DNA of 43,197 nucleotides from Acidobacteriota bacterium (GTDB lineage Bacteria; Acidobacteriota; Terriglobia; Acidiferrales; UBA7541). The DNA lies in assembly GCA_003131985.1 (NCBI GenBank), contig PKWH01000231.1, positions 1 through 43,197 on the forward strand. Reading direction: 5' to 3'. Numbering within the stretch: the first letter of the stretch is position 1; every line of letters starts with the position of its first letter. Made by a program: the position numbers and the translations under genes. The notes below the pieces were generated by a model, which was not told where the DNA came from, ran no database searches, and was given only the letters and a program-made list of their open reading frames with translations. This document shows, piece by piece, positions 9,833-39,451 of the stretch.

Positions 9833-10761
9833 GTCGCATTCACGAAGCGTTAAAAAAAGCTGAACAAGAAAGAGCTGCGGCCCAGACGCCCGATAACTCG
9901 CCTTCTCTACCGAGCACGGCGACGGAGGTCCTCCCGCGTGCACGTGAAGGATCGGATGACGCTCCCAGCATATTCAAGCATTCGACCGCTATCGCTTCCC
10001 AGCCTGGGAATCTAAAACGGTTCGAAGACCTGTGCCAACAGTGCGCGCATCCTCACTGGCACCCGGATCCGAATGTAAACATTTTTTCCAATCCGGCTTT
10101 AAGTGCAAACGCGGCGGAACAATTTCGGACTTTGCGATCACGGCTTTACCAATTGCGCGGGAGCCAACAGCTCCGCACTCTCTTGGTTGCCAGTTCCGTG
10201 CCCGCGGAAGGCAAAACGTTTGTAACCAACAATTTGGCGCAAGCAATTGTCCGTCAGCCCGATCGTAGATGTTTGATTATCGACGCGGACCTGCGGTGTT
10301 CCCGTCTCCACGTGCCGCTCGGCGCACCACCTTCTCCGGGTTTGACGGATTATTTGCTGGGAGATGCCGACGAGGTGACGGTTATTCAGCACGGTCATGA
10401 AGGGAATCTTTGCTTTATTCCAGGCGGGAAAGAGGTGGCCAACCCAAGCGAATTACTGTTAAACGGCCGGCTGAAGACATTGTTGGAGCGGGTAACGCCA
10501 ATTTTTGACTGGGTCATCCTGGACTCCCCACCATTACTTCCCGTGGCAGACGCAAGCTTGCTCGCCGACCATGTTGATGGTGTGATTTTGGTGGTGCGTG
10601 CGGCTTCGACCCCAACCGGAGCGGCTGAACGAGCCTGTCAAGAACTGCAAGGTAGGAACGTAATAGGCGTGGTGTTGAATGCTGTAGAGCAGTCTCAGAC
10701 TTATGGATCTTACTATTACGCAGGTTACGGATACGGGCAAGAAGAAGCCAAATCAGGTTAG
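9829..10761 (+). CDS. BY-type protein tyrosine kinase (EpsG/CpsD-like)
   Basis: Walker A SSVPAEGKTFV, Walker A' LIIDADLR, Walker B VILDSPP, and a C-terminal tyrosine cluster YGSYYYAGYGYG. The start overlaps the upstream stop (ATGA). Confidence 0.85.
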   Translation: MSRIHEALKKAEQERAAAQTPDNSPSLPSTATEVLPRAREGSDDAPSIFKHSTAIASQPGNLKRFEDLCQQCAHPHWHPDPNVNIFSNPALSANAAEQFRTLRSRLYQLRGSQQLRTLLVASSVPAEGKTFVTNNLAQAIVRQPDRRCLIIDADLRCSRLHVPLGAPPSPGLTDYLLGDADEVTVIQHGHEGNLCFIPGGKEVANPSELLLNGRLKTLLERVTPIFDWVILDSPPLLPVADASLLADHVDGVILVVRAASTPTGAAERACQELQGRNVIGVVLNAVEQSQTYGSYYYAGYGYGQEEAKSG

Positions 10762-10866
10762 CCCTAGAGTACCATTTGGCCAAGCGAATGCTTCGTACAG
10801 GACCTGCTAAGATGGGAGTTGTTTCAGGCATACGCGAGTTGAAGATGGGCACCCGGGAAATCTACT

Positions 10867-11102
10867 CTATGTCCTTTATAAGGCTGGTCTTGGGTGTAGG
10901 AAAACAAGTGGAACTCTGGGATAGCAATGTTCATAGAGTGATTCGAACTGGTGTCCCAAAGACGGCAAGTGCCCAAAGGATTTCTCAATTAAGGCATTAA
11001 GCTTCATAGATTTACCCAAAACGCGACTAGAGCTTGCAGTGGCATTCGTCGTGCAAACCTGTAGTCGAGGGTCAATTGTGACTCTCATGGCGGTAGCATA
11101 AG
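10867..11102 (+). promoter_or_regulatory. Conserved ~235-nt leader element, copy A, ending in a hairpin plus an ops-like GGCGGTAGC
   Basis: Direct repeat of 36610..36844. By my hand alignment the first 79 nt match at 65/79. A 29-nt block (11070..11098) is identical to 36813..36841. Hairpin gagggtca-attg-tgactctc is at 11067..11086 and GGCGGTAGCA at 11089..11098, 17 nt before the NusG-like ATG. Confidence 0.5.
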
Positions 11103-11114
11103 CGCAGTGGCAAA

Positions 11115-11732
11115 ATGAGACCAAATCTCAAATCCGAATGCGACACTGAGAAAGCAGCCAGGCAGGATGGTGTCATTGGGTATCCCTGGTTCGCTTTGCA
11201 GGTTCGAACGCGCCATGAGTCAGGCGTTGCGAATTATTTGCTTGGCCAAGGTTACGAGTCGTTTCTTCCGCTTTACAAGTGCCGCAAGCGCTGGTCCGAC
11301 AGGGTTAAGGAAGTGCAGACTCCCTTGTTTCCTGGTTACTTATTTTGCCGGTTCGATCCTCAGGACCGGCTGCCCATTATGAAGACTCCGGGCGTAATGC
11401 AAATAGTGGGAGTGAACCGCGTGCCGGCTCCGGTGGATGAAGTTGAAATCGGCGCTATCCAGACTTTGGTAGCGTCGGGTATTCCAAATCAGCCCTGGCC
11501 ATTTTTGCAGGTAGGCGAGAGGGTGCGAATTGAGTCAGGTTCTTTGAGCGGTCTTGAAGGAATCCTGATGGATTTTAAGGGGACTCAGCGGCTCGTACTT
11601 TCGATCACGCTGCTTCAACGTTCCGTATCAGTGGAAATCGATAGTGCGTTTGTTTCGTCTACGGCCTCGTCGCAGCGATCGCGATTGGAAAAAACATTGG
11701 CCGTGTGCAGGCCAGTTCAGATCGTGGTCTAA
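11115..11732 (+). CDS. NusG-family paralog (RfaH/UpxY/LoaP-like operon-specific transcription antiterminator)
   Basis: NGN domain WFALQVRTRHESGVANYLLGQGYESFLPLY...LFPGYLFCRF and KOW-like VGERVRIESGSLSGLEGILMDF. It is the first gene after the conserved leader, at the head of the biosynthetic genes. Confidence 0.85.
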   Translation: MRPNLKSECDTEKAARQDGVIGYPWFALQVRTRHESGVANYLLGQGYESFLPLYKCRKRWSDRVKEVQTPLFPGYLFCRFDPQDRLPIMKTPGVMQIVGVNRVPAPVDEVEIGAIQTLVASGIPNQPWPFLQVGERVRIESGSLSGLEGILMDFKGTQRLVLSITLLQRSVSVEIDSAFVSSTASSQRSRLEKTLAVCRPVQIVV

Positions 11733-11790
11733 CAGCGAAATTGGCTGACGCTGAAATGAGTTTCGGAGAACGATTTAGCAAAGAGGTTGA

Positions 11791-12954
11791 GTGAGCGGCG
11801 TGTCTACTACAAAGCCACGAATTGTTGAACATATGAAGAAGTCGATCGGAACTGACGGGAATTCCGCCAGCTCGATGGCGGGTTTCCTTTCCGAAGAACA
11901 GTTTCGTCGAATGCTGGCCCGAGAAAGAAAGCGATCAGAGCGTTCACGAAAACATTTGGTTCTAATGTTGATCGACGGCGGATTGAAGAATAAGAAGACG
12001 GATGCTCTTTTGGAACAGATTGCAGTGGTCCTCTGCGCATCGATTCGCGAGACTGACCTGGCGGGATGGTTCGAGGCGAATTCTGTTTTTGGTGTAATTT
12101 TCACTGAGTTCGGAGACTGCGATGTGAGCGCAGCCGTCAAAATTATCGAGGCCAAAGTTACAGCGGGACTGCAAAACTCATTCAAGGCCACTCAACTGAG
12201 CAGTTTCCAAATCTCCTTCTATGCCTTCCCGGAGGGCTGGGAAGGAGACGGGCATCAGCGGCCGGTGGACCCAACGATGTATCCCGATCTGTTCGAAGTT
12301 AAGGAGAAAAAAAAGCTGTCATTGCTGACCAAACGCGTGATGGATCTCGTAGGGGCATCGCTAGCCGTGGCGATTCTCTCACCGGCATTTCTGCTGCTAG
12401 CTGTGATTATCAAGCTAACATCGAAGGGTCCGATTTTCTTTCGCCAAGAACGAGTCGGCCAGTTCGGGTCGCGGTTTGTGTTCATTAAGTTCCGGTCGAT
12501 GTACGTTTCAACCGACGCCGCTATTCACAAGGAGTACGTCAGAAAATTCATCGTGGGGAAGGCAAATTCTTCCGCTCAGGAAGGAAGCAAGAAGGGCGTC
12601 TATAAGATTACGAACGATCCTCGAGTCACTTGGATTGGAAGACTCTTGCGGCGCACGAGCCTTGACGAGATACCTCAATTCTGGAACGTGTTGAAAGGCG
12701 AGATGTCCCTGGTGGGGCCGCGGCCTCCTATTCCCTATGAAATCGAAGCCTACGATATCTGGCATCGCCGCCGATTGCTGGAGTCGAAGCCGGGCATTAC
12801 AGGATTGTGGCAAGTACACGGCCGGAGCAAGACTACGTTCGACGAAATGGTTAGGTTGGATCTGCAGTACTCCAGAATGTGGACACCTATGTTGGATGTG
12901 AAAATACTTCTCCAGACTCCTCGCGCAGTTTTTTCAGGCGATGGCGCCTATTAG
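11791..12954 (+). CDS. Priming polyprenyl-phosphate sugar-phosphate transferase (Bac_transf family) with an N-terminal degenerate GGDEF-like domain
   Basis: The C-terminal half carries KRVMDLVGASLAVAILSPAFLLLAVIIKLTSKGPIFFRQERVG..G..F...KFRSM...DPRVT.IGR.LRRTSLDEIPQFWNVLKGEMSLVGPRP. The N-terminal ~170 aa follow the GGDEF-fold pattern (see findings). GTG start with aagagg RBS; an alternative ATG is at 11833. Confidence 0.85.
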   Translation: MSGVSTTKPRIVEHMKKSIGTDGNSASSMAGFLSEEQFRRMLARERKRSERSRKHLVLMLIDGGLKNKKTDALLEQIAVVLCASIRETDLAGWFEANSVFGVIFTEFGDCDVSAAVKIIEAKVTAGLQNSFKATQLSSFQISFYAFPEGWEGDGHQRPVDPTMYPDLFEVKEKKKLSLLTKRVMDLVGASLAVAILSPAFLLLAVIIKLTSKGPIFFRQERVGQFGSRFVFIKFRSMYVSTDAAIHKEYVRKFIVGKANSSAQEGSKKGVYKITNDPRVTWIGRLLRRTSLDEIPQFWNVLKGEMSLVGPRPPIPYEIEAYDIWHRRRLLESKPGITGLWQVHGRSKTTFDEMVRLDLQYSRMWTPMLDVKILLQTPRAVFSGDGAY

Positions 12955-13019
12955 TCTGATGACACTCCTGGAAAAATCCGAACGTTTCGAAGCTCTCTGG
13001 CTTAGCGCGCCGGGGATTT

Positions 13020-13041
13020 AGACCGCTTGCGCGGTTTGTTT
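13020..13041 (+). terminator. Weak candidate intrinsic terminator after the priming transferase
   Basis: agaccgc-ttgc-gcggttt stem (7 bp including one G-U) followed by gttt. The stem is short and the U-tract poor. Confidence 0.3.
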
Positions 13042-13097
13042 CGACGGCCGCAAAAATTCTGTCCTTTCAGGATTTGAACTCTCAGGGTGAAAAAAAG

Positions 13098-14162
13098 ATG
13101 GCTACTAGTCTAGATGTTGACGCTGCGACAAAACTCGGGAAACAGCGGGATTCAAACGAGAGCGTGATTAGGATGGGCGTGATCGGGTACGGTTACTGGG
13201 GCCCGAACATTGTCCGGAATTTTCACGGACAAGAGCGTTCCCGCGTGGTCGCCATTTGCGACAAGACGCCTAAGTCACTGCAGCGCGCCCGGCAGGCCTA
13301 TCCGGAAATTCGTGCGATCGATGATTGTAATGACATCCTCACTGCTACGGATATCGATGCGATCGCGATCGTGACACCGGTTTGGACCCACTATGAACTT
13401 GCCAAAATCGCCTTGGAAAATGGCAAACACGTGTTCGTTGAGAAGCCGTTTACGTGCACTACGGCGCAAGCCGAGGAACTGATCGAACTAGCGGAGCGCA
13501 AGAAGCTGAAGATCATGGTGGACCACACGTTTTTGTTCACCGGCGCCGTCAAGCGCATCAAGGAATTCATTGATAACGGTACGCTCGGAGATCTCTATTA
13601 CTACGACTCCACGCGCGTAAACCTCGGACTCTTTCAGCATGATGTAAATGTGCTCTGGGATCTGGCGCCGCACGATCTTTCGATTATGGATTATCTGCTC
13701 AAGGATAAGCCCGAGGCGATCGTCGCCACCGGTGAGCGCCATTTAAATGGTGTTGCCGATATCGCATTTCTCACTCTCTACTATCCGAACAACATGATCG
13801 GGCACATTAACGTGAACTGGCTGTCGCCGGTAAAGGTGCGTACAACTCTCATCGGCGGTGAGAAGAAAATGCTGGTTTGGAACGATCTCGAAGCTGACGA
13901 AAAGCTGAAAATATACGACAAGGGTGTGCAAATGAGCGGCGACGGAGTCTATCAACTGCTCGTGAGCTACCGTTCCGGCGATATGTGGGCGCCTCGAGTC
14001 GAACAGGTGGAAGCGCTCAAGTTAGAAGCGGCGTATTTCGTTGACTGCATTCTAAACAATAAAAAGCCGTTTAATGATGGAGCCGCGGGATTGCACGTTG
14101 TACAGGTGCTGGAAGCCGCCGATCAGTCGTTGCAGCAAAGAGGAAAAGTAATCCGGTTGTAG
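13098..14162 (+). CDS. Gfo/Idh/MocA-family NAD-dependent sugar-nucleotide oxidoreductase (WbpB/WlbA-like)
   Basis: Rossmann motif MGVIGYGYWGPNIVRNF and EKP motif VFVEKPF. The track ORF starts at TTG 13074. I prefer the in-frame ATG at 13098. Confidence 0.8.
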   Translation: MATSLDVDAATKLGKQRDSNESVIRMGVIGYGYWGPNIVRNFHGQERSRVVAICDKTPKSLQRARQAYPEIRAIDDCNDILTATDIDAIAIVTPVWTHYELAKIALENGKHVFVEKPFTCTTAQAEELIELAERKKLKIMVDHTFLFTGAVKRIKEFIDNGTLGDLYYYDSTRVNLGLFQHDVNVLWDLAPHDLSIMDYLLKDKPEAIVATGERHLNGVADIAFLTLYYPNNMIGHINVNWLSPVKVRTTLIGGEKKMLVWNDLEADEKLKIYDKGVQMSGDGVYQLLVSYRSGDMWAPRVEQVEALKLEAAYFVDCILNNKKPFNDGAAGLHVVQVLEAADQSLQQRGKVIRL

Positions 14163-17102: not shown

Positions 17103-17339
17103 AAGGGTTTAACCTTTGTTCGGACCTGTGAGGCGCGTGGAGGAGCCTCCGACCTGTCCTCAAACTGTCCCCGCGGGCAGTAGTCGCCCTAAGCGGTTGT
17201 GGATAACATCATCCCAGTTGCATTTCACAGAGCTGAAAGTGAAAGAACTTTTGGCATGGAATGTCTCGGCTGGATGATGAGGGAGACGATGCGTAAAACA
17301 GTTCTTTTTAGGGGAATTCAGGTCCTTCGTGGTGTCCGA

Positions 17340-19139
17340 ATGAAAAAAACATATCTTTTTATGCTGGTCCTGTTGTTCGCTCCGCTCGCGGCTCGCGCCG
17401 CTGGAGGTGGAGCATGCCCTTCCGACGCACAGTACGTTAATCCGACCAATCCGACTGGACCACTTGTAACGCTTTCCAGTATCGGCATCACGAGTTGCTT
17501 CTACTTTGCTGACAGTGGCCTCGACACCAATGCCGGCACCACGGAAGCTGCCCCATTTTTGCATGCTCCCTTCATGCCGAACTGCGCATCATCGTGCGCT
17601 GCAGCTCAGGCTGCTTTTGGCCCGGGAGAGGGAATCATTGCGCGTGGAGGTGATACCTGGCACTACTTTTCGGGCACTCCTCTAATCGGCTTGCCGAGCG
17701 GCTGGCCTACAGGCAAAAATGGCTACGCATGGCATATGACTGTGAGCGGGACAAGCGCGAATCCAGTCTACATCGGCGTGGACAAAAATTGGTTCTCGGG
17801 CAGCGCATGGACGCGCCCGGTAATCACTACGGACAACCCTATTTTCACGCCATCTGCTCCAGCGTTTTCAAACCCTGCCTCGACATCTGTTTCACGTTGC
17901 GCCTTTCCGCAAGGGAATTTAGATGACTTCGCGGTTACCGGCCCCACGTTCTGGATATTCGATAATTTCGAATTCACGGGCATGTGCTGGAACGATAGAA
18001 CCGATGGCGGCACCGGCTCGAACGAGCACAATATGATTAAGCAGTTTCAGGGCGGCGGCACGGGAAGTTCTCCCCGCTATATTTTCAATACCTACACACA
18101 CGGCTGGAGCCACACGAGTTTCGCAGATTGCGCCAGCTCGGGAGCCTGCAACGGTCCATCCGCATTTCTGGGGAGCACTCAGGCGATCGACTCTGGACTT
18201 GTACTCGCATTCAACGTAGTGGATGGCTCGGATTCCGACGATTTCTCATTCAGCTTCGGATTCGGTGATGGTTACGACGTGGAAGAAAACGTCTTTAGGC
18301 ACTTAGGTGGGACGCAGATATTTGATAATTGCCATTCGGTCCATGACAACCTGTTCGAGTACATCAATAATGGGAACGATAATATGACTCACGGGGATAT
18401 GTTTTTCTGCGAGAGCGATGTCCAGCCGACGCAGAACAATTTCTTCTATAATAATTTAGTTCGGTATATAGCTACGGAATACAATCAAGACGCGCTCTCG
18501 GCGGTTTGGTGGCTCACTCCGTCACCCGGAAAAGCCGACTATTTTTACAATAACGTGGGCCATGACGTGAACTGTGATGGCGACTGCAACAATATGGGGC
18601 AATCGGGGCAATCTAATAGCAGTTCGCAAATTCTGATCTACAATAACACCTGGCAGTCGGTGCCCGTCAATGGACAGAATTTTAAGATTTTCGGCAACAC
18701 TTCATTCCCGGGAGCCATCACCAGTCAAAACAATCACTGGATTACGAATGGAGGAACCGGCTGCGGAAATATATTCACCGGAACCGCAAACGTCAACGGC
18801 GGAAACACCGCGTGCTCGGGCGACGTATTCCAGACGATTGCAGCAGCGAATGCGCAGGGATACACGTCCGCCAACGACTATGCCCCGACGGCAGCATCTA
18901 CAGCCACGGCAGGGAAAGTGGAGAACGAAACCGGCATCGCCGGCACATTCGGTCTAGCGTTCCTACAGAGCACCTCGAATGGGTGTGCTTACAACCCCGC
19001 AGGCCATACGGTGACTTGCCCGGCGATAACCGTATCCAATCGGCCATCCATCGGAAACTGGGATGCCGGAGCATACGTATCCGGCAGCTCCGACCAGCCC
19101 CCAGCACCGGCGAATCTGGCAGCAACCGTCAACAACTAG
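17340..19139 (+). CDS. Secreted Cys-rich protein with parallel beta-helix-like repeats (possible polysaccharide lyase or hydrolase)
   Basis: The internal ATG at 17340 gives a clean signal peptide, MKKTYLFMLVLLFAPLAARAAGG. Recurrent N-N/aromatic rungs occur (NNFFYNNLVRY, DYFYNNVGHD, ILIYNNTWQS, SQNNHWITNG). The track ORF start at 17199 is probably an upstream extension. Confidence 0.45.
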   Translation: MKKTYLFMLVLLFAPLAARAAGGGACPSDAQYVNPTNPTGPLVTLSSIGITSCFYFADSGLDTNAGTTEAAPFLHAPFMPNCASSCAAAQAAFGPGEGIIARGGDTWHYFSGTPLIGLPSGWPTGKNGYAWHMTVSGTSANPVYIGVDKNWFSGSAWTRPVITTDNPIFTPSAPAFSNPASTSVSRCAFPQGNLDDFAVTGPTFWIFDNFEFTGMCWNDRTDGGTGSNEHNMIKQFQGGGTGSSPRYIFNTYTHGWSHTSFADCASSGACNGPSAFLGSTQAIDSGLVLAFNVVDGSDSDDFSFSFGFGDGYDVEENVFRHLGGTQIFDNCHSVHDNLFEYINNGNDNMTHGDMFFCESDVQPTQNNFFYNNLVRYIATEYNQDALSAVWWLTPSPGKADYFYNNVGHDVNCDGDCNNMGQSGQSNSSSQILIYNNTWQSVPVNGQNFKIFGNTSFPGAITSQNNHWITNGGTGCGNIFTGTANVNGGNTACSGDVFQTIAAANAQGYTSANDYAPTAASTATAGKVENETGIAGTFGLAFLQSTSNGCAYNPAGHTVTCPAITVSNRPSIGNWDAGAYVSGSSDQPPAPANLAATVNN

Positions 19140-29407: not shown

Positions 29408-32329
29408 ATGCCTTTTGACATGCAGACAAACCTAAAAAATGCGGGACGCCAGATCGAGGCCCAACATGGAGCTCCAGGGCTTGTCTTCTGGATTACCGGC
29501 TTATCCGGCGCGGGCAAGACAAGCGTGGGGCGTGAATTGTGGAACCGGCTGCGCGCCGCCGGGCGTCCGGTCACCTTCCTCGACGGCGACGCGCTCCGTG
29601 CTGTGATCGCCGAAGATCTTGGCCACAGCACGGCCGACCGGCGGCGATCGGCGATGCGCAACGCGCGGTTGTGTCGGTTGCTGGCGGCGCAAGGCGCCGA
29701 TGTCGTCTGCGCGACCATCTCACTGTTTCACGAGGTGCAGCGTTGGAACCGCGAGAACATTCCCGGATATCGCGAAATCTACCTACGGGTCCCGATAGAT
29801 GAGCTAAAGCGTCGGGATAGCAAGGGCATCTATGCCGGGGCTGAACGCGGCGACGCGCGCGACGTCGTTGGCCTTGACGTGCCGGCGGAGGCTCCCGAGG
29901 CGCCGGACCTGGTCCTGGACAATCATGGCGGGCTCGATGTTGCCACCGCGGTCGAGCGCATCTTGTCGGTTTGCGACAGGCGGGATGGCACGGCACGGAC
30001 GGCGCACCTCGTTACCTTCAAGACGAAGGCGGAATCTCTGGAAGCGCTGGCGCCGCTGCTGCGCAATGGGCGCGTCCTGCCGCAGGTCCGATTTTCAGTT
30101 GGCGATTGGCGCTCGGACGCCGCTGGCGTGCTCGCTGCCGTCGCCGCCGTGCCCTGGGGTTCAAAACGGGTCATCGTGCGTAGCAGTGCACGGAGCGAAG
30201 ACGGCGCAGAGAGCTCCCAGGCCGGGAGATACGATTCCGTACTCGGTGTCGTCGGCAGCGCAGCACTGGCACAGGCAATCGATCAGGTGATTGACTCCTT
30301 TGCCGATGAGAGTAGCGACGACCAGATCTTCGTGCAACCCATGCTTGACCGCGTATCGATGGCCGGCGTGGCTTTCTCGCGCAGTCCCGGCGGCGGCCCT
30401 TATTTTGTTATCAATTACGACGACCGTTCCGGCCTGACCGATCGCGTGACCGCCGGTGTCGGAGACAATCTCGAGACTTTTCTTTGCCTCAAATCGCGGC
30501 CTGAGGCTTGTCCCCCGTTGCTGGCGCCGGTTATCGCTCTCATGAGCGAGCTCGAAACTCTCTTGGGGTGTGATGCAATCGACGTGGAATTCGCCGTTGG
30601 TGACGACGAGCAGCTCTACCTTCTGCAAGTTCGCCCACTCGCCGTCGACCGGTGGGAGCGGGCAGCAGACGCAAAGGTCGACGCCGCGCTTGCTGATGTC
30701 GCGCGCAAGGTCGAGCTGCTCAGCCGCCCGCATCCATACTTGCACGGTAGCAAAGCAGTATTCGGAGTCATGCCGGACTGGAACCCGGCGGAAATCATCG
30801 GGGTGCGGCCCTGGCCACTCTCGTTGTCGCTCTACCGCGAACTTATCACCGACGCGATCTGGGCGTATCAGAGAGACAACTACGGATACAAGAATCTTCG
30901 CAGTTTTCCGCTGCTGGTCAGCTTTCACGGACTGCCCTACATCGACGTGCGTGTCAGCTTCAACTCCTTCATACCAAGCGACGTACCCGACGATCTAGCC
31001 GGGCGTCTCGTAAATTACTACATCGCTCGCCTCCTATCCGAACCGCATCTCCATGACAAAGTCGAATTCGAGATCATCTTCTCCTGCTACACGTTGGATT
31101 TGCCGAAACGAATGCGCAGGCTGGCCGAGCACGGATTTTCCGCAGAAGACCTTGCCGAAGTTTCGGGCGCCCTACGGCGCCTCACCAATCGCATCATCCA
31201 TGGCGACACCGCGCTGTGGCGGGGCGACCGCGCTAAGATTGACCTGCTGGCACGGCGGTTACCGACGATCTGCAACGCAAAAATCGACAAGATCAGCCGC
31301 ATTTACTGGCTGATCGAAGACTGCAAGCGATACGGCACGCTGCCGTTCGCCGGTCTGGCGCGAGCGGGCTTCATAGCGGTTCAGCTGCTCCAGTCTTTCG
31401 TTGAAGTGGGCGTTCTCACTGCCGAAGAGGCTGCGACATTCATGGCGAGTGTCGATACCGTCGGGTCTCGCATCGGCCAAGATTTCGCGCAACTTCCGAA
31501 GGCAGATTTCCTCGCACGCTACGGCCACCTCCGGCCGGGCACTTACGACATCCTTTCGCCGCGCTACGACGAGGCGCCCGATCTCTATTTCGACTGGTCG
31601 AGTGCCCGAACGACGGCGTCCGCGTCCCCGCGCTTTGCGCTGTCGATCGAGCAGTTGCGACGCATCGAACAGCTGCTCAAGGAACATGAGCTCGACATCG
31701 ACGTCTTGAGCTTGATCGAGTTCATCAGGGCTGGCATTGAAGGCCGCGAATACGCAAAGTTCGTGTTCACGCGAAGCTTGAGCGACGCTCTGTCGCTGAT
31801 CAGGGAGCTGGGCGAGGATCATGGTGTTTCGGCGGAGGATTGTGCGTTTCTAAATTACGACGCCATCCGCACGCTCTATAGCGAGAGCGCTCCGGTGCGC
31901 GAGGTGTTGCTGGAGAGCATCGCGCATGGTAGAGAGCGTCACGCGCTCACCCGCAACCTCGTTCTTCCACCGAACATCACATCGCCCGACGAAGTGTTCG
32001 CATTTTATCTCCCCCCAAGCCAGCCTAATTTCATCACGCGAAAAAGCGTCACCGCACCGGTCGCGTCCATCGGCGACCCACCGGAGAGCTTCGCTGGACG
32101 GATTCTTTTCGTGCCAAGCGCGGACCCCGGCTTCGATTGGATCTTCACTCGTGGTATCAGCGGATTCGTCACCCAGTTCGGCGGTGCCAATTCGCACATG
32201 GCGATCCGTGCCGGCGAGCTCGGCATACCCGCCGTAATCGGCGCCGGCGAAGCGCTGTTCCGGCGATGGCAGTCGGCGCGCAAGCTATGCCTCGATTGCA
32301 CGAACCAGAAGGTCTTGGTCATCGCATGA
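29408..32329 (+). CDS. Two-kinase fusion: N-terminal APS-kinase-fold domain (CysC/Cj1415-like) plus a PEP-utilising/PPDK-type phosphohistidine kinase (Cj1418 L-glutamine-kinase-like)
   Basis: Residues ~25-190 read VFWITGLSGAGKTSVG...FLDGDALR...ADRRRSAMRNARL...ISLFHEVQRWNR...EIYLRVPIDELKRRDSKGIY, an adenylylsulfate-kinase pattern. Residues ~200-973 contain a PPDK_N-like nucleotide-binding region (GVAFSRSPGGGPYFVINYDD). The C-terminal swivel domain reads ILFVPSADPGFDWIFTRGISGFVTQFGGANSHMAIRAGELGIPAVIG, with the candidate phospho-His at codon 930 (nt 32195..32197). RBS aggga. Confidence 0.75.
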   Translation: MPFDMQTNLKNAGRQIEAQHGAPGLVFWITGLSGAGKTSVGRELWNRLRAAGRPVTFLDGDALRAVIAEDLGHSTADRRRSAMRNARLCRLLAAQGADVVCATISLFHEVQRWNRENIPGYREIYLRVPIDELKRRDSKGIYAGAERGDARDVVGLDVPAEAPEAPDLVLDNHGGLDVATAVERILSVCDRRDGTARTAHLVTFKTKAESLEALAPLLRNGRVLPQVRFSVGDWRSDAAGVLAAVAAVPWGSKRVIVRSSARSEDGAESSQAGRYDSVLGVVGSAALAQAIDQVIDSFADESSDDQIFVQPMLDRVSMAGVAFSRSPGGGPYFVINYDDRSGLTDRVTAGVGDNLETFLCLKSRPEACPPLLAPVIALMSELETLLGCDAIDVEFAVGDDEQLYLLQVRPLAVDRWERAADAKVDAALADVARKVELLSRPHPYLHGSKAVFGVMPDWNPAEIIGVRPWPLSLSLYRELITDAIWAYQRDNYGYKNLRSFPLLVSFHGLPYIDVRVSFNSFIPSDVPDDLAGRLVNYYIARLLSEPHLHDKVEFEIIFSCYTLDLPKRMRRLAEHGFSAEDLAEVSGALRRLTNRIIHGDTALWRGDRAKIDLLARRLPTICNAKIDKISRIYWLIEDCKRYGTLPFAGLARAGFIAVQLLQSFVEVGVLTAEEAATFMASVDTVGSRIGQDFAQLPKADFLARYGHLRPGTYDILSPRYDEAPDLYFDWSSARTTASASPRFALSIEQLRRIEQLLKEHELDIDVLSLIEFIRAGIEGREYAKFVFTRSLSDALSLIRELGEDHGVSAEDCAFLNYDAIRTLYSESAPVREVLLESIAHGRERHALTRNLVLPPNITSPDEVFAFYLPPSQPNFITRKSVTAPVASIGDPPESFAGRILFVPSADPGFDWIFTRGISGFVTQFGGANSHMAIRAGELGIPAVIGAGEALFRRWQSARKLCLDCTNQKVLVIA

Positions 32330-32351
32330 AAGCGGTCGCCATCACTCACAG
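32286..32351 (+). repeat. Gene-junction repeat, copy 1 (functional 3' end of the kinase gene plus a truncated 5' stub of the amidohydrolase gene)
   Basis: It aligns with 33207..33272 at about 47/66 nt by hand. It encodes ..CLDCTNQKVLVIA* and then ATGA-overlapped MKAVAITHS.., which runs into a stop after 26 codons. Confidence 0.6.
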
Positions 32352-32395
32352 CAGGCAAACACAATCATCGAATATCAGACTGACGGAGGAAAACG

Positions 32396-33169
32396 ATGGT
32401 CAATAGCACATCCCAGCCCAAAGTAACTTGGGATTACACCGAGCACGCTTCTCATTACGATAAGAGAGCAGACTACTCCCACGATGCGATCAATAATTTG
32501 CTGAAGGCAATTGGCTGCACCCCTTCCAAGCCCGTAGCCGAGATTGGCGCAGGCACGGGTAAGCTCACGAAGGAGCTGCTCAGTCATGGATTAACGGTCA
32601 GCTCCGTCGAGCCGAACGACGCGATGCGGACAATCGGAATTCAAAATACCAAGGGCAAATCAGCTACCTGGTCTGTTGGCACAGGTGAGGCGACAGGATT
32701 GCCCACAAGCGGTGCTTACGCCGTTTTTTTCGGCAGCTCATTTAATGTAGTTGATCAGAGCCTCACTCTATCAGAGGTTTCCAGAGTGCTTGTACCCAAG
32801 GGCTGGTTTGCATGTATGTGGAATCATCGGGATTTAGATGATCCGATTCAACAGCGGATAGAGTCCATCATCAAATCCTCGATTCCAGCTTACTCGTATG
32901 GATCTAGAAGGGAAGATCCGACAAGCGTTATCAATGCAAGTGGGCACTTCTCTGCCACGAAATCGATAGATGGAAGTTTTGTATGGAAAATGTCAAAGTC
33001 AGACATTATTGTTGCTTGGAAATCACACGCGACTCTCAAACGCCAGGCAGGCAGTGACTCGGTTTTCAATCACATCATCGAGGAAATCGCGAGCTATTTG
33101 GACAAACTGCCTGAAATAATCGATGTGCCCTACACAACTCGGATATATTTTGCGCAAAAGATCAAGTAG
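32396..33169 (+). CDS. Class I SAM-dependent methyltransferase (candidate O-methyltransferase of the phosphoramidate block)
   Basis: Motif I VAEIGAGTGKLTKELL, with LTVSSVEPNDAMR and AVFFGSSFN. Strong RBS ggagg. By spot counts its GC is clearly lower than that of the genes on either side. Confidence 0.8.
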   Translation: MVNSTSQPKVTWDYTEHASHYDKRADYSHDAINNLLKAIGCTPSKPVAEIGAGTGKLTKELLSHGLTVSSVEPNDAMRTIGIQNTKGKSATWSVGTGEATGLPTSGAYAVFFGSSFNVVDQSLTLSEVSRVLVPKGWFACMWNHRDLDDPIQQRIESIIKSSIPAYSYGSRREDPTSVINASGHFSATKSIDGSFVWKMSKSDIIVAWKSHATLKRQAGSDSVFNHIIEEIASYLDKLPEIIDVPYTTRIYFAQKIK

Positions 33170-33206
33170 GGAGGGGTTTTACCGCTTGGCGGACTGCGAA
33201 TACAGT

Positions 33207-33272
33207 TGTGCCTGGACTGTACAAGCCGGAAGGTTCTAGACATCGCATGAAGAAAGTCGCAATTACCCAGAG
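33207..33272 (+). repeat. Gene-junction repeat, copy 2 (orphan 3' end of a kinase gene plus the functional 5' end of the amidohydrolase gene)
   Basis: The frame opened after the methyltransferase TAG reads ..LCLDCTSRKVLDIA*, against ..LCLDCTNQKVLVIA* at the real kinase C-terminus. It is followed by ATGA-overlapped MKKVAITQR.., the real start of the next gene. Confidence 0.6.
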
Positions 33273-33849
33273 GGTATCAGTCGTCCCGGGATATGGTGAG
33301 CGTCGTGATTGTCTCGATCAGGCGTGGCCACGGTTCCTGGCAGCGTGCGGACTGATGCCGGTGGCGCTTCCCAACGTGATTGAGGTAGCCGTGGCGCTTT
33401 GCTCAGGCGCGGACGTTACCGGATTGGTGTTGACCGGCGGCAACGACCTCGCTGCTCTCGGTGGCGATGCCCCAGAACGGGATGCCACCGAGAATGCGGT
33501 TCTTGACGTCGCAGAATCGCGCGGGCTGCCTGTGCTCGGCGTCTGTCGCGGGATGCAGGTGGTGCAGCAGCGTTGCGCAATCCCGCTGTGTCGCGTCGAA
33601 GGCCACGTGACACCACACCAGGTAATTCGGATCGACGGCGAGCCCACAGAGGTCAACAGCTATCATCGTTTCGCCGCCTTAGAATCACGACCACCCCTTG
33701 ACGTTTGGGCGGTCGCTGACGACGGCGTCGTCAAGGCTATCCGGCATGCGGCCCACTCGACCACCGGTATCATGTGGCATCCAGAGAGAATGGATCCTTT
33801 CACGTCTGCCGACGTCGCTCTGTTCCGCCGCGTCTTCAAGGTGGCGTGA
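33247..33849 (+). CDS. Class I glutamine-amidotransferase-fold / peptidase C26 hydrolase (Cj1417-like gamma-glutamyl hydrolase candidate)
   Basis: GLVLTGGNDL, nucleophile elbow LPVLGVCRGMQVV, and the His-Glu pair in GIMWHPE. I prefer ATG 33247 (MKKVAITQ) to the track GTG 33208, which lies in the orphan kinase remnant. Confidence 0.8.
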   Translation: MKKVAITQRVSVVPGYGERRDCLDQAWPRFLAACGLMPVALPNVIEVAVALCSGADVTGLVLTGGNDLAALGGDAPERDATENAVLDVAESRGLPVLGVCRGMQVVQQRCAIPLCRVEGHVTPHQVIRIDGEPTEVNSYHRFAALESRPPLDVWAVADDGVVKAIRHAAHSTTGIMWHPERMDPFTSADVALFRRVFKVA

Positions 33850-34628
33850 TGCGCGCCTTGATCCTTGCCGCTGGTCGCGGTAGTCGCATGGGGCAGCTGG
33901 GCGATGGCCGCCCGAAATGCTTGGTGGACCTGAATGGCCATCCGCTGATTGAGCGCCAGATCGCGGCACTCCGGCGCGGTGGGATGGACGAGATTGGAGT
34001 GGTCCGCGGCTATCGCGCCGACATGATCGATTTCCCCGGCATCACCTATTTCGCCAACGAACGATGGGCTGAAACCAACATGGTGATGTCGCTCGTCGCG
34101 GCCGCTTCTTGGCTACGCTCGGGGCCAGTCATCGTCAGCTATGCCGACATCTTCTACCTCAGCGAATTGGTGCGCGGTCTGTCCGGCGCCCCAGGCCAAC
34201 TGGTCATCAGTTACGACCGGGCCTGGCGCCGCTTGTGGACCCGGCGTTTCACTGATCCTTTGGCCGACGCCGAAACGTTCCAGATTGATGCCGCGGGGCA
34301 ATTGCTGGAGATCGGCGGCAAGACGGCGCGGATCGAAGATATCGAGGGGCAATATATGGGTCTCTTGAAATTCACGCCAGCTGCTTGGGGTGCCGTGGAG
34401 ACGCTACTCAGTACACTCGAGCCACCGGTCCGCGATCGCCTCGACGCGACCGGATTGCTGCGCCGACTGCTAGCGGGTAAGAAGCTCCCTATTGCCACTT
34501 TTGGCACCGATGGCCAATGGGGCGAAATCGACAATCCGGAGGATGTGACGCTGTACCAAAACATGGTAAGGGAAGGGGAACTCCGGCTCGAAGATGTGAT
34601 ACCCAGCGGAGAGCGGAGGGTGGGATGA
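33849..34628 (+). CDS. Nucleotidyltransferase (NTP_transferase fold, Cj1416-like cytidylyltransferase candidate)
   Basis: MRALILAAGRGSRMGQLGDGRPKCLVDLNGHPLIERQI is the signature N-terminal G-rich loop. The ATG overlaps the upstream TGA by 1 nt. The track ORF start (33774) lies inside the previous gene. Confidence 0.8.
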   Translation: MRALILAAGRGSRMGQLGDGRPKCLVDLNGHPLIERQIAALRRGGMDEIGVVRGYRADMIDFPGITYFANERWAETNMVMSLVAAASWLRSGPVIVSYADIFYLSELVRGLSGAPGQLVISYDRAWRRLWTRRFTDPLADAETFQIDAAGQLLEIGGKTARIEDIEGQYMGLLKFTPAAWGAVETLLSTLEPPVRDRLDATGLLRRLLAGKKLPIATFGTDGQWGEIDNPEDVTLYQNMVREGELRLEDVIPSGERRVG

Positions 34629-34661
34629 CGGTGATCGATTCGCGCGGCGCCTTATTTAGAC

Positions 34662-35522
34662 CTACAAACTGTAGCCCATTTGCTCGATCCGTCTTTTTGT
34701 CTCCGCATCCAACTCATTGATAAAGTTTCTGAATCGAGGAACTCTTTCTTTAACAGCTAAATAGCCATAAGGCTTGGTTCTCGGAGGGACCACCCGTAAA
34801 CGGCTCAAATCAAGATTAACCGACATGACTTCAGCGATCTTGGAAAACTCCTTTAATGGATTGATCGTGAAGTCCTCAAACCGCAACGTGAGCGTGGCGG
34901 TTTGGAGATAAATCTCAGTTTCCTCGACAAATTCCGGGAAAGACAAAAATCGTAAGCCCGGCGACGCCTTCCAAAAAGCATGGTCGCCATCGGCAAAGGC
35001 CTTGAATTCTGAGAAATTCTGCTCCAAACCGGCGCACAACTCGTCTGCGTTCTTGTAAACCTGGGAGATACTAAAAATTTTGCTTCCGTCGCGCCAGTTT
35101 TCTGCGGCTGATATAGTAATCCAATTTGTTAGCAATGAATCGAGAGGATGCCGATAGAGAAAAATCAAATCGGCAAATCCCGATTTGACCGCTTCCAATA
35201 TACGGCTGGTTACCGCCGGCAATGCTTGACCGCCGGAAACATACTTGATCGTGGCATGGCCGCTGTAGATCATGGATGTCGGACGTGCATGGAAGCGGAT
35301 CGTCTGTCTCAAATATCGTGTTCTTTCTCCAATATTCTGCAGCATCAGTTCGGTGACATATTGACGTCCGCTGCCGAAGAGGCCAATAACATAAGCTGTC
35401 CTGTCTTTCCCTGGATGGATTTTCCAATACCATTCCGTTTCCACCCATTTGTCGCGGAGGAACTGCAATTGTTCCCGAGGGGATTTTCGCGCGAATCTGA
35501 TGAGCTTAGGGAGTACCTGCAT
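34662..35522 (-). CDS. Sulfotransferase-fold protein (PAPS-type donor-binding motifs)
   Basis: A 5'-phosphosulfate-binding-loop-like YVIGLFGSGRQYVTELM and a 3'-phosphate-binding-like FLYRHPLDSLLTNW (compare R-D-P-x-D-x-x-x-S). Strong RBS aagaggag. Convergent with the nucleotidyltransferase gene. Confidence 0.65.
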   Translation of the reverse strand: MQVLPKLIRFARKSPREQLQFLRDKWVETEWYWKIHPGKDRTAYVIGLFGSGRQYVTELMLQNIGERTRYLRQTIRFHARPTSMIYSGHATIKYVSGGQALPAVTSRILEAVKSGFADLIFLYRHPLDSLLTNWITISAAENWRDGSKIFSISQVYKNADELCAGLEQNFSEFKAFADGDHAFWKASPGLRFLSFPEFVEETEIYLQTATLTLRFEDFTINPLKEFSKIAEVMSVNLDLSRLRVVPPRTKPYGYLAVKERVPRFRNFINELDAETKRRIEQMGYSL

Positions 35523-35578
35523 CCGGCTCCTCTTGCGGCGAGTTTATCGCTGTTTTAGTGCTTCGGTTCAATTGAAAA

Positions 35579-36463
35579 ATGGTACTTGTTTGGAAAGAAA
35601 TGAATAAAACAAAAAATAAAAGGATTCAAAAAGATCTGGACCGAATTGTAGCAGCGCTAGATGCAGGCGGCAAAATCTATCGGTCGAGATCGATGGGAAA
35701 TGTGCGTGTGCACAAGAAGGGAAGCGGTGACGCTGTCACGGACGTAGAGCTTCAAGTGAATCAACTGTTGTTTGAAATGCTGGTAGAAGCCGGAGATGGC
35801 TGGCTTTCCGAAGAAGACGTCGATAACGAGGATCGATTGCGATGTTCGCGGGTTTGGCTCGTCGATCCACTCGATGGAACAATAGAATATGTCGAGGGAA
35901 TACCAGAATGGTGCATTTCGATCGCCTTAATGGAAGGTGGCGAACTTATTGCCGGGGGAATATTGAATCCCCAGACCGATGAACTCATATACGGATCGCG
36001 CGAAATCGGGGTCGTCTGCCGTAATGGGCAGGCTCATAGTGCTGAAATGAAAATTCCGCCGCGCGAAGCGCTCGTGCTTGCGAGCCGCAGTGAAGTAAAG
36101 CGCGGAGAATGGAAGCGATTCAGCCAAGGTCCGTTTCAGACCCTAGCCGTGGGATCGGTAGCTTACAAACTAGCCTTGGTTGCGGCTGGCAAAGCCGATG
36201 CCACTTGGACGCTGGTGCCAAAGAGCGAGTGGGATGTTGCAGCCGGAGTCGCACTCTTGCAGTTCGCGCAAGGACATTTGCTAACGACGGAAGGCTTCCC
36301 ACCTACTTTTAATCGAAGAAACACTCGTTTCCCAGGTTTAGTTGGATTTTCTGCGGCGGGACTCGATCGACTGCGCCCTTTCCTCAAGTCCGTATTGGAA
36401 GCCGATGAGTTTCGTGATTGCCTTGCGTGGGCCCGCCCGTTGGCAGCCCTGGACCAGAAATAA
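35579..36463 (+). CDS. Inositol-monophosphatase/CysQ-superfamily phosphatase (candidate 3'(2'),5'-bisphosphate nucleotidase)
   Basis: Metal and substrate motifs LSEED, WLVDPLDGTIEYVEG.PEWCISIAL and WDVAAG. The CysQ-versus-SuhB subfamily cannot be decided by eye. An alternative start is at ATG 35600. Confidence 0.75.
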   Translation: MVLVWKEMNKTKNKRIQKDLDRIVAALDAGGKIYRSRSMGNVRVHKKGSGDAVTDVELQVNQLLFEMLVEAGDGWLSEEDVDNEDRLRCSRVWLVDPLDGTIEYVEGIPEWCISIALMEGGELIAGGILNPQTDELIYGSREIGVVCRNGQAHSAEMKIPPREALVLASRSEVKRGEWKRFSQGPFQTLAVGSVAYKLALVAAGKADATWTLVPKSEWDVAAGVALLQFAQGHLLTTEGFPPTFNRRNTRFPGLVGFSAAGLDRLRPFLKSVLEADEFRDCLAWARPLAALDQK

Positions 36464-38260: not shown

Positions 38261-39451
38261 ATGGCTAGACCCCTTTTCGCATTATCGGTGGAAGCCGATA
38301 CCCTGACGCAGATTGCTTCTCTGAACCAATCTGTTGTGGCGGGGCTCGTTTCCATGTTCGATCCCGAGCGAAAACTCTTCTGCCACCGGCTGCGGCTGGG
38401 CGAAAGTGGATTAGTTCGAGAGGGAATTTCTCATCGCTACACCATGATCGCGCTGTTGGGTCTCCAACGATTGCGATCCACCGGAGTCTCGATTCCGCTG
38501 GATCTTCCATCGATTTTGCAGGTTCTGATTCAGGACACCCGCTGGCTTGAAAATGTCGGCGACCTCGGTTTGCTTGTGTGGCTTTGTGCCTTGGTGTCTC
38601 CCGAGCGCCTAGCCGAAATTGATTCCCAATTCGATTTGAAACATGCTCTGGCTCACTTCCACGAGACTCGCCGGGGAAGAACGATGGAGCTGTCCTGGTT
38701 TCTCTCGGGCCTCGCCCACCAGAAGCTAGCGTGCCCGGACCTGCTTCCGCACCTGCGCGATACCGCCATGGAGACGTATCAGCTTCTGAGGAAGAATCAG
38801 GGCGAGCACGGAGTGTTCAGCCACCTCGCGGAAAACGGAGGCTTGACCGGGCTGATGCGCGGACGCATGGGAAGTTTTGCGGATCAAGTTTATCCCATCT
38901 ATGCGTTGGCCAAATTTTCTAGAGCGTATCAAGTGCCGAAGGCTGCCGAGCGTGCGCTGGACGCCGCGTTGACGCTGTGCGAATTGCAGGGTCCTCATGG
39001 TCAGTGGTGGTGGCACTACGACGCGGCCACTGGGAAGGTATTGGGTCAGTATCCTGTTTACTCTGTGCACCAATATGGCATTGCGCCCATGGCCCTTCTA
39101 GCGTTGGGAGAAGAGACTCAATCAGATTTTACTCCCTGGATTTATAAGGGACTACGATGGATTCACGGGGACAACGAGCTTGAACAGGATATGCGAGATA
39201 GTTCGGCAAACGTAATTTGGAGATATATTTATCGCAACGATTACAAAAAACATTGGGATGTCGCTCTCGCGGTGCTAATGGCGCGCGGAGATGCCCAACC
39301 TCACAAGGAACTTGCGGTCCTGCACGAGTGCCGTCCATACGAACTCGGCTGGCTGCTCTATGCTTTCGCCGGGCACCGAATGGGACAGCAAGGTCTGCCC
39401 GGCACGGCTCCTATAATAGCGACGCGATTGACCGAACGCATTCAACAATGA
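38261..39451 (+). CDS. Conserved hypothetical protein (helix-rich, possibly alpha/alpha-toroid-like)
   Basis: 396-aa ORF in an operon-like position between the DegT and deacetylase genes. It has periodic aromatic/Leu-rich helical segments (ELSWFLSGLAH, VYPIYALAKFSRAY, GQWWWHYD..YPVYSVHQYGIAPMALLALGE). No catalytic motif was recognised. Confidence 0.4.
   Translation: MARPLFALSVEADTLTQIASLNQSVVAGLVSMFDPERKLFCHRLRLGESGLVREGISHRYTMIALLGLQRLRSTGVSIPLDLPSILQVLIQDTRWLENVGDLGLLVWLCALVSPERLAEIDSQFDLKHALAHFHETRRGRTMELSWFLSGLAHQKLACPDLLPHLRDTAMETYQLLRKNQGEHGVFSHLAENGGLTGLMRGRMGSFADQVYPIYALAKFSRAYQVPKAAERALDAALTLCELQGPHGQWWWHYDAATGKVLGQYPVYSVHQYGIAPMALLALGEETQSDFTPWIYKGLRWIHGDNELEQDMRDSSANVIWRYIYRNDYKKHWDVALAVLMARGDAQPHKELAVLHECRPYELGWLLYAFAGHRMGQQGLPGTAPIIATRLTERIQQ

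Follow-up and report, generated by a model that had tools for sequence, protein, structure and literature searches.

Introduction

To our knowledge, glycan decorations with a phosphorus–nitrogen (P–N) bond, those of O-methyl phosphoramidate (MeOPN) type, are thought to be nearly confined to Campylobacter. In Campylobacter jejuni, the activated cofactor 3′-phospho-cytidine-5′-diphosphoramidate (3′-phospho-CDP-amidate) is made by four activities, those of Cj1418, Cj1416, Cj1417 and Cj1415 (PMC11800397). The last steps of the pathway, methylation and transfer to sugar, have never been reconstituted, and transfer is known only genetically, from knockouts (PMC11800397, PMC3907429). Here we describe a gene from an Acidobacteriota bacterium (assembly GCA_003131985.1, contig PKWH01000231.1), found in a stretch of 43,197 nucleotides that we call the window. 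The gene (34662–35522, minus strand, ATG start) encodes a 286-residue protein of an unannotated family with a predicted, divergent sulfotransferase fold, and is a candidate (methyl)phosphoramidate transferase gene.

The described proteins with the same proposed role, phosphoramidate transfer to sugars of capsule or exopolysaccharide (EPS), are C. jejuni Cj1421 and Cj1422 (CJJ81176_1420 and CJJ81176_1435). Both they and our protein are encoded next to cj1415–cj1418 homologues and methyltransferases, and both occur as several paralogues per genome, one possibly away from the biosynthesis locus, as is the case for one MeOPN transferase of strain 81-176 (PMC3907429). The likeness is one of gene position and proposed role. 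The strain 81-176 proteins have 592 and 603 residues, and phase-variable poly-G (G9) tracts occur in their genes (PMC13317227), whereas our protein has 286 residues and the longest homopolymer run in its gene is 5 nt (T5). The Campylobacter transferases were defined genetically; for the present family we infer the function. In the literature on Cj1421 and Cj1422 we found no domain information.

A second comparison is with the sulfotransferases that use 3′-phosphoadenosine-5′-phosphosulfate (PAPS), among them the cytosolic SULTs, the plant SOTs and LGS1, the heparan-sulfate 3-OSTs, StaL and Teg14. Our protein resembles them in its predicted fold, in a phosphate loop set between a strand and a helix, in an R-x7-S/T motif, in a histidine after the next strand, in a YEDL-like strand before a helix, and in size (~250–290 residues). 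It differs from them in passing no curated hidden Markov model (HMM), in carrying glycine, with an invariant arginine three residues on, at the position of the catalytic Lys/Arg of the 5′-phosphosulfate-binding (PSB) loop, and in the genomic tie of its family to CDP-amidate biosynthesis and not to sulfate activation.

On balance, we think it somewhat probable that the protein acts in the cytoplasm as an enzyme of P-loop type, built on a divergent sulfotransferase fold, and, jointly with this, is a group transferase of the phosphoramidate pathway, with 3′-phospho-CDP-amidate as donor and a sugar as acceptor; this is the explanation that we favour. In the full-text literature we found no paper linking MeOPN transfer with sulfotransferases and none reporting phosphoramidate on acidobacterial EPS.

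A compact family without annotation

Homologues of the protein number more than 1000 (E ≤ 1e-3); the gene is therefore real. Among the 120 matches listed, identity ranged from 64 to 100%, and every one was unnamed or 'hypothetical' and without a Pfam domain. By phmmer against 1.84 billion cluster representatives, the whole family came to 119 clusters at 50% identity. Judged by these sequences, of which there are ~1000, chiefly from peat and soil Acidobacteriota, the family is compact, yet its members reach down to ~27% identity.

The 286-residue protein matched no Pfam or NCBIfam model at E ≤ 0.01, and no sulfotransferase model even at E ≤ 10; a direct search of its sequence against the PDB likewise gave no match. 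All that came up was a spurious match to UMP1 (E = 1.4) and one to DUF7941 (E = 0.016). Inspection of the sequence, with no predictor run, made no signal peptide or membrane segment evident. A scan for promoters and terminators around the gene found nothing exceeding shuffled background.

A divergent sulfotransferase fold

A preliminary description, made from the sequence alone, had proposed a sulfotransferase fold and a check of it by HMM. The proposal gains support from a custom family profile and from Foldseek, and none from the curated Pfam and NCBIfam models; our assignment of the fold thus rests on family-profile and structure searches and not on a direct scan with curated HMMs. The profile was built from an alignment of 23 diverse family members, down to 21% identity (alignment A2). 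Its 13 best matches among PDB sequences were all sulfotransferases, including LGS1 and SULT2A1. The best of them, sorghum LGS1 (22ga_A, E = 7.2e-6), aligned over a span that opens with the motif RHPLDSLLTNW and closes with the strand LRFEDF. Distant members of the family match Pfam Sulfotransfer_3 and Sulfotransfer_1 below threshold; the match of P0171 to Sulfotransfer_3, for example, has E = 6.6e-4 and 20.4 bits, with a cutoff of 27.

AlphaFold2 gave a confident model from A2, with a predicted local distance difference test score (pLDDT) of 88.6 and a predicted TM-score (pTM) of 0.83. An earlier model from 29 close homologues was discarded (pLDDT 51). Foldseek of the A2 model against the PDB returned 58 matches at E ≤ 1e-3, and among the 50 listed all were PAPS sulfotransferases: SULT1, SULT2, SULT7, plant SOT16, SOT18 and LGS1, the heparan 3-OSTs, Teg14 and StaL, with E-values of ~1e-5. 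Foldseek probability was 1.0 throughout, with TM-scores of just 0.33–0.45. On this model, the protein is predicted to hold the sulfotransferase α/β fold as a far outlier of the superfamily.

Conserved motifs and a predicted active site

The predicted secondary structure places the conserved elements in the following order: strand 42–47, the GSGR loop, helix 53–63, strand 85–88, His89, strand 117–123, Arg124, helix 126–141 with Thr132, and strand 211–214, that of LRFEDF. The loop is part of GLFGSGRQY (residues 47–55; 35358–35384, minus strand), a P-loop or 5′-PSB-like element between strand 42–47 and helix 53–63 in which G50, G52 and R53 are conserved. His89, in the sequence SGHAT (codon at 35256–35258, minus strand), stands directly after strand 85–88 and is nearly invariant in alignments A1 and A2. 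RHPLDSLLT (residues 124–132; 35127–35153, minus strand) runs from a strand end at Arg124 into the helix that bears Thr/Ser132, and is similar to 3′-phosphate-binding sites. LRFEDF (residues 213–218; 34869–34886, minus strand) is the counterpart of the sulfotransferase 'YEDL' strand.

Residues G52, R53, R124, E201 and E216 are invariant across A2, and G50, H89, H125, P126, D128, N133, F176, S194, P247 and G283 nearly so. Few parts of the family are as well conserved as the GLFGSGRQY and RHPLDSLLT motifs, which, since their conservation holds in an alignment reaching down to 21% identity, are not chance matches.

For RHPLDSLLT, the resemblance to 3′-phosphate-binding motifs that the preliminary description had pointed out is corroborated: in the HMMER alignment it falls on RNPxDxxVS of sulfotransferases with crystal structures (RNPRDVLVS in SULT2A1, and LGS1). 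R124 is invariant and residue 132 is always Ser or Thr, in keeping with the sulfotransferase 3′-phosphate motif of an Arg followed by Ser/Thr eight residues on. The PSB-like character claimed for GLFGSGRQY stands in part. Its loop and glycines are there, and the canonical catalytic Lys/Arg is not; a by-eye alignment on the Ser-Gly of PKSGTTW and PRSGTT puts the nearly invariant G50 at that position. In the same alignment the invariant R53 follows the second glycine, three residues past G50, at the position of the Walker A lysine. A search of the window in all six frames for the canonical PSB motif, written as P[KR][ST]G[ST][TS], gave no match. From motif order and topology, His89 is a candidate catalytic base like His108 of the cytosolic sulfotransferases.

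The loop also raises the alternative of a P-loop kinase or NTPase that uses a Walker-A-like GxxGxGR to phosphorylate a sugar or a cofactor. GLFGSGRQY resembles GxxGxGK[ST], the P-loop of APS (adenosine-5′-phosphosulfate) kinase reads GLSGSGKST, and weak PDB profile matches include shikimate kinase (E = 0.2) and a designed 'phosphate-loop protein'. However, the loop does not match the Walker A pattern GxxxxGK[ST], having Arg in place of Lys and lacking the Ser/Thr that should follow. All significant profile and Foldseek matches are sulfotransferases, kinases appearing only at E ≥ 0.2, and the R-x7-S/T 3′-phosphate motif and YEDL-like strand are sulfotransferase hallmarks. We regard kinase activity as highly improbable.

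Linkage to a phosphoramidate cassette

As first described, the minus-strand reading frame with its two motifs converges on a nucleotidyltransferase gene, and a 33-nt spacer (34629–34661) separates the two stop codons; the frame, the motifs and the spacer were all confirmed. The nucleotidyltransferase gene (33849–34628, plus strand) encodes a MobA-like protein (Pfam NTP_transf_3), a candidate CTP:phosphoglutamine cytidylyltransferase of Cj1416 type; among solved structures, CTP:phosphocholine cytidylyltransferase is nearest to it in sequence. It belongs to a cassette on the plus strand that opens with a 973-residue fusion (29408–32329; Pfam APS_kinase, PPDK_N and PEP-utilizers). In this protein an APS-kinase-like domain of Cj1415 type (residues ~15–195) is joined to a PRK05849, phosphoenolpyruvate (PEP)-utilising L-glutamine-kinase homologue of Cj1418 type. 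The fusion scores 936 bits against NCBIfam NF004508 (cutoff 501), and its kinase domain passes the PRK05541 subfamily model only, falling below every CysC equivalog cutoff. A methyltransferase dependent on S-adenosylmethionine (SAM) follows (32396–33169; Pfam Methyltransf_11 and Methyltransf_25), a candidate O-methylase of the phosphoramidate; almost every related locus has a methyltransferase with its cassette. Between it and the cytidylyltransferase gene lies that of a class-I glutamine amidotransferase or peptidase C26 (33208–33849; Pfam Peptidase_C26), homologous to the γ-glutamyl-CDP-amidate hydrolase of Cj1417 type; its best NCBIfam model is NF045546, at 111.9 bits and below the cutoff of 250. 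By homology, the cassette is thus predicted to supply the four activities of cofactor biosynthesis together with a methyltransferase.

To see how widely the family and cassette occur together, one genome per GTDB species was scanned; 144 relatives were found and 80 loci kept, with cassette genes located by tblastn with the window proteins. The loci come mostly from peat and soil metagenome-assembled genomes (MAGs) of Acidobacteriota (Terriglobia, Bryobacterales), Gemmatimonadales and Eremiobacterota, with further hosts in single MAGs of Verrucomicrobia, of Binataceae and of Alphaproteobacteria and in an assembly of Nevskia soli (Gammaproteobacteria). At least one core cassette gene lies within 10 kb in 50 of the 80 loci, at a median gap of 0.9 kb, and at least three of the four core functions are present in 43. 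Restricting the count to the 52 loci having at least 7 kb on both sides leaves 31 with at least three functions. By genome, 50 of 68 MAGs have a copy beside the cassette, and in 9 of the 12 MAGs with two copies, one stands at the cassette and the other elsewhere. With an assumed background rate of 0.5%, the binomial probability of this linkage is ~1e-93.

Arrangement and divergence follow the same pattern. The gene is opposite in strand to the glutamine-kinase gene in 39 of 44 loci, so that the convergent arrangement is conserved, and its identity to the window protein correlates with that of the glutamine kinase (rho = 0.59). All six deeply divergent members (P0187, P0240, P0246, P0241, P0216 and P0243; 27–35% identity) abut a cassette, here made up of a stand-alone 175–180-residue kinase, one or more methyltransferases, a ~770-residue glutamine kinase, the hydrolase and the cytidylyltransferase. 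Their contigs have a GC content of 40–59%, and one is Herbaspirillum-like.

The preliminary description had offered two exclusive readings, transfer of phosphoramidate or genuine sulfation from PAPS. The genomic evidence favours the first, because the family is linked to the full cassette across phyla, down to 27% identity, and because no ATP sulfurylase occurs near any locus examined. For the second, our protein would be a PAPS-dependent polysaccharide sulfotransferase and the EPS would be sulfated, with PAPS coming from the APS-kinase-like domain or a housekeeping CysC, and a CysQ-like protein removing 3′-phosphoadenosine-5′-phosphate (PAP). The fold and the 3′-phosphate-binding motif are indeed those of PAPS sulfotransferases, solved APS-kinase structures are matched by the kinase domain at E ~1e-26, and a CysQ-like gene adjoins ours. 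A Vibrio alfacsensis plasmid (NZ_CP140104.1, 4645–16716) also carries, in order, cysD, cysN and a sulfate-type SLC13 permease gene, the same fused cassette, and a gene of the TagF-like CDP-glycerol glycerophosphotransferase family. This is the only cassette that we saw beside sulfate-activation genes, and the plasmid lacks our family.

Against sulfation, the protein fails every curated sulfotransferase model, and nearly invariant Gly50 replaces the catalytic Lys/Arg of the PSB loop. The linkage takes in a cytidylyltransferase, a γ-glutamyl hydrolase and a glutamine kinase, none of which takes part in sulfation, and it holds at 27% identity. Signature motifs of CysD, CysN, SLC13 and Sat (QxRNPxHxxH, GRDHAG) are absent from ~200 loci, namely the window, 87 loci of the family and 120 marine cassette loci. 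The kinase domain is present next door, as had been noted, and its proposed part as a PAPS-supplying module fares poorly: it lies below the CysC equivalog cutoffs and, because it is fused to an L-glutamine-kinase homologue, is not part of a sulfate-activation module. Taken together, these points make sulfation from PAPS quite unlikely.

The CysQ-like gene in question (35579–36463, plus strand) is divergent from ours across 56 nt. Its product belongs to the inositol-monophosphatase family (Pfam Inositol_P; best NCBIfam model TIGR01331 CysQ, 99 bits, below cutoff). Among the loci surveyed, such a gene is near our family only in L004 and L007 (one contig), L005, L013, L017 and L047.

Paralogues, fusions and other roles in the pathway

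Within the phosphoramidate pathway, the protein might serve other than as a sugar transferase. It might present the cofactor to the methyltransferase, break it down by hydrolysis, recycle it, or use a lipid, protein or small molecule as acceptor in place of a carbohydrate. Genomic coupling speaks to a link with the pathway and not to the reaction, and the pairing of our gene with a methyltransferase gene is common. Solitary paralogues with no cassette within 10 kb (L014, L022, L037, L048 and L055, with the family gene at ~10001–10860 in each) do not lie in obvious glycan loci; their neighbours include a methyltransferase with an HD-domain protein, a class-I aminotransferase, a prolyl oligopeptidase, a phospholipase C (PLC)-type phosphoesterase and a Double-GTPase. 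Many relatives are, moreover, fused to a BrxC-like P-loop ATPase domain and not to glycan enzymes. These proteins (P0123, P0127, P0129, P0131, P0134, P0135 and L063:7673–10753, plus strand) have 600–1030 residues, with a domain 57–64% identical to our protein and an N-terminal part homologous to the P-loop ATPase region of BREX BrxC (NF033441, up to 255 bits, cutoff 400). The L063 fusion also adjoins a MeOPN cassette.

Against such a role, all of a Wzx/Wzy-type EPS locus is present in the window, where none of the other open reading frames (ORFs) scanned encodes a candidate transferase, and the placement of the conserved His, like that of the sulfotransferase catalytic base, suggests activation of an acceptor over mere binding. 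One relative, P0122 (903 residues; contigs up to 687 kb), is itself fused to a glycosyltransferase of family GT2: a SAM methyltransferase (~40–190) and the GT2 domain (~404–630) precede the domain of our family (631–900). By Rosetta-stone reasoning, the P0122 fusion hints at a single glycan as the target of methylation, glycosyl transfer and our domain. We consider a role in the pathway other than sugar transfer unlikely.

In several distant members (P0161, P0170, P0171, P0187, P0194 and others), a ~100-residue N-terminal region with repeated 'FDxxFY...Y...G...E.R.PnP.F' motifs and no Pfam match stands in place of the basic N-terminal helices of our protein (residues 1–40, of lower pLDDT).

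The exopolysaccharide locus

The window as a whole is a Wzx/Wzy-type EPS locus, with a Wza-like protein, Wzz/GNVR, a ParA-like kinase, an initiating sugar transferase, a flippase and glycosyltransferases of families GT2 and GT4, along with rmlABCD (rmlA–D assigned by Pfam matches and sequence similarity). No TagF-like, LicD-like or canonical sulfotransferase family match was found among the window ORFs scanned. Two further ORFs were considered as transferase genes and rejected, being unlike the proteins beside other cassettes. One encodes a secreted, Gly/Asn-rich protein of 646 residues (17199–19139, plus strand), with a signal-peptide-like N-terminus and no Pfam match, possibly a β-helix glycanase; the other encodes 396 residues with no Pfam match (38261–39451, plus strand) and has a conserved counterpart beside DegT, 95% identical in L005 and 43% in L001 and L011.

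The closest public relative of the window is L005 (OY969113.1, uncultured Acidobacteriota MFD03399.bin.1.55, 3385234–3406091), where gene order is the same from AsnB to the kinase fusion and protein identity is 85–98%. The Cj1415-type and Cj1418-type kinases are fused in the window, in most acidobacterial loci and on the Vibrio plasmid. Separate genes encode them in distant lineages (L086, e.g. 9560–13199; L090–L093), on Azospirillum and Deltaproteobacteria plasmids, and in Campylobacter. Within the window cassette, the stop codon of the amidotransferase gene and the ATG of the cytidylyltransferase gene overlap as TGATG (33847–33851), which suggests translational coupling.

Base composition varies along the cassette. 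Our gene (47.5% GC) and that of the methyltransferase (48.2%) fall far short of the window mean of 53.4%, and the genes of the kinase fusion, the amidotransferase and the cytidylyltransferase have 61%. The region from 29408 to 36463 is a compositional mosaic, which suggests differing origins for the biosynthetic core and for the transferase and methylase parts.

Cassettes with other transferase scaffolds

Metagenomes were scanned for the invariant peptide MPDWNPAE as spelled in AT-rich codons, and at least 120 further cassette loci were recovered (L095–L214; GC 20–48%), mostly marine by their record names and not from Campylobacter. The cassette is abundant in such AT-rich, apparently marine contigs. 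The glutamine kinase was present in 120 of 120. Their neighbours include Pfam Sulfotransfer_3 proteins in 8 loci, where they abut the cytidylyltransferase, the methyltransferase or the kinase, TagF-like Glyphos_transf proteins in 9 and LicD-family proteins in 7; NeuB, DegT and CapD also often adjoin. By hhalign, our family had no significant match to the eight commonest gene families beside these cassettes, including Sulfotransfer_3, and for this reason the two sulfotransferase-like groups are not demonstrably one family. A homologue search with a LicD-like neighbour returned proteins of Pelagibacter, Halorhodospira and gut Lachnospiraceae. Plasmid-cassette neighbours were likewise tried as homologues of our family (Azospirillum tetratricopeptide repeat (TPR) proteins, a 539-residue Vibrio protein and all ORFs of at least 100 residues at three plasmid loci), and none was homologous.

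The TagF-like and LicD-family proteins hold, in other lineages, the same position beside the cassette as our protein (the Vibrio plasmid, and the 9 and 7 marine loci). Both families attack the β-phosphorus of a CDP-linked donor, the same chemistry as we propose here. Our protein has no detected homology to their clusters, with hhalign E-values of 0.38–0.55 and no significant match in HMM searches. TagF and LicD enzymes do not need a 3′-phosphate on the donor; the presence of one on the cofactor would be explained by a site of sulfotransferase type.

The transferase scaffold that goes with the cassette thus appears to differ between lineages, a sulfotransferase-like one occurring at least twice. 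The marine recurrence weakly supports the general idea of phosphoramidate transfer by a sulfotransferase scaffold, and phosphoramidate-type decoration of glycans may have a much wider distribution than one would gather from work on Campylobacter.

A proposed function

For the phosphoramidate transfer that we favour, the following mechanism is proposed. The cassette, with its glutamine kinase fused to a 3′-kinase, its cytidylyltransferase and its γ-glutamyl hydrolase, would make 3′-phospho-CDP-amidate, whose shape and charge would mimic those of PAPS. Arg124 and Thr132 would bind the 3′-phosphate of the donor and the GSGR loop its 5′-diphosphate, while His89 would activate a sugar hydroxyl of a lipid-linked repeat unit. 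The terminal P(O)(NH2)O− group would then be transferred, methylated before or after by the cassette methyltransferase, with release of 3′,5′-cytidine bisphosphate (3′,5′-CBP). The adjacent CysQ-like phosphatase, a candidate 3′-phosphatase for 3′,5′-CBP or PAP, could clear this product. A cytoplasmic nucleotide as donor and a locus of Wzx/Wzy type make it probable that the acceptor is the repeat unit while linked to undecaprenyl, at the cytoplasmic face of the membrane.

Several observations weigh against this proposal. In 30 of the 80 loci no cassette gene lies within 10 kb, and the solitary paralogues stand in non-glycan contexts, so that some acceptors may be other than polysaccharides and further functions of the family are possible. 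Because TM-scores reach only 0.33–0.45, the kinship to sulfotransferases is distant and the geometry of the active site uncertain. The CysQ-like neighbour suits removal of PAP equally well. None of 14 plasmids with a glutamine-kinase cassette (Azospirillum, Vibrio, Cupriavidus, Agrobacterium and others) carries our family, of which plasmid and phage collections held no homologue, and the 120 marine cassette loci gave two weak matches only. Since these plasmids and marine cassettes largely lack the family, it is not a universal partner of the pathway. Sulfotransferases beside glycan genes are, besides, common in marine bacteria.

The novelty of the proposal lies in a sulfotransferase-fold family with a predicted new donor. 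We are evenly divided on the broader claim that the family uses 3′-phospho-CDP-amidate exactly as sulfotransferases use PAPS, which would be a new donor chemistry for the fold, would account for the 3′-phosphate of the cofactor, and would imply that P–N decorations are common on soil, and probably marine, polysaccharides. A small protein co-inherited with the cofactor genes provides a testable candidate for the MeOPN transfer step, and its predicted sulfotransferase fold gives a rationale for the PAPS-like 3′-phosphate. If our reading is true, the sulfotransferase fold would acquire a new reaction class, and a 'rare', pathogen-associated capsule decoration would extend to the abundant soil Acidobacteriota, with the marine survey pointing to ocean bacteria too. 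It would then have a bearing on EPS chemistry, on recognition by phages and predators, and on organic P–N compounds in peat and seawater.

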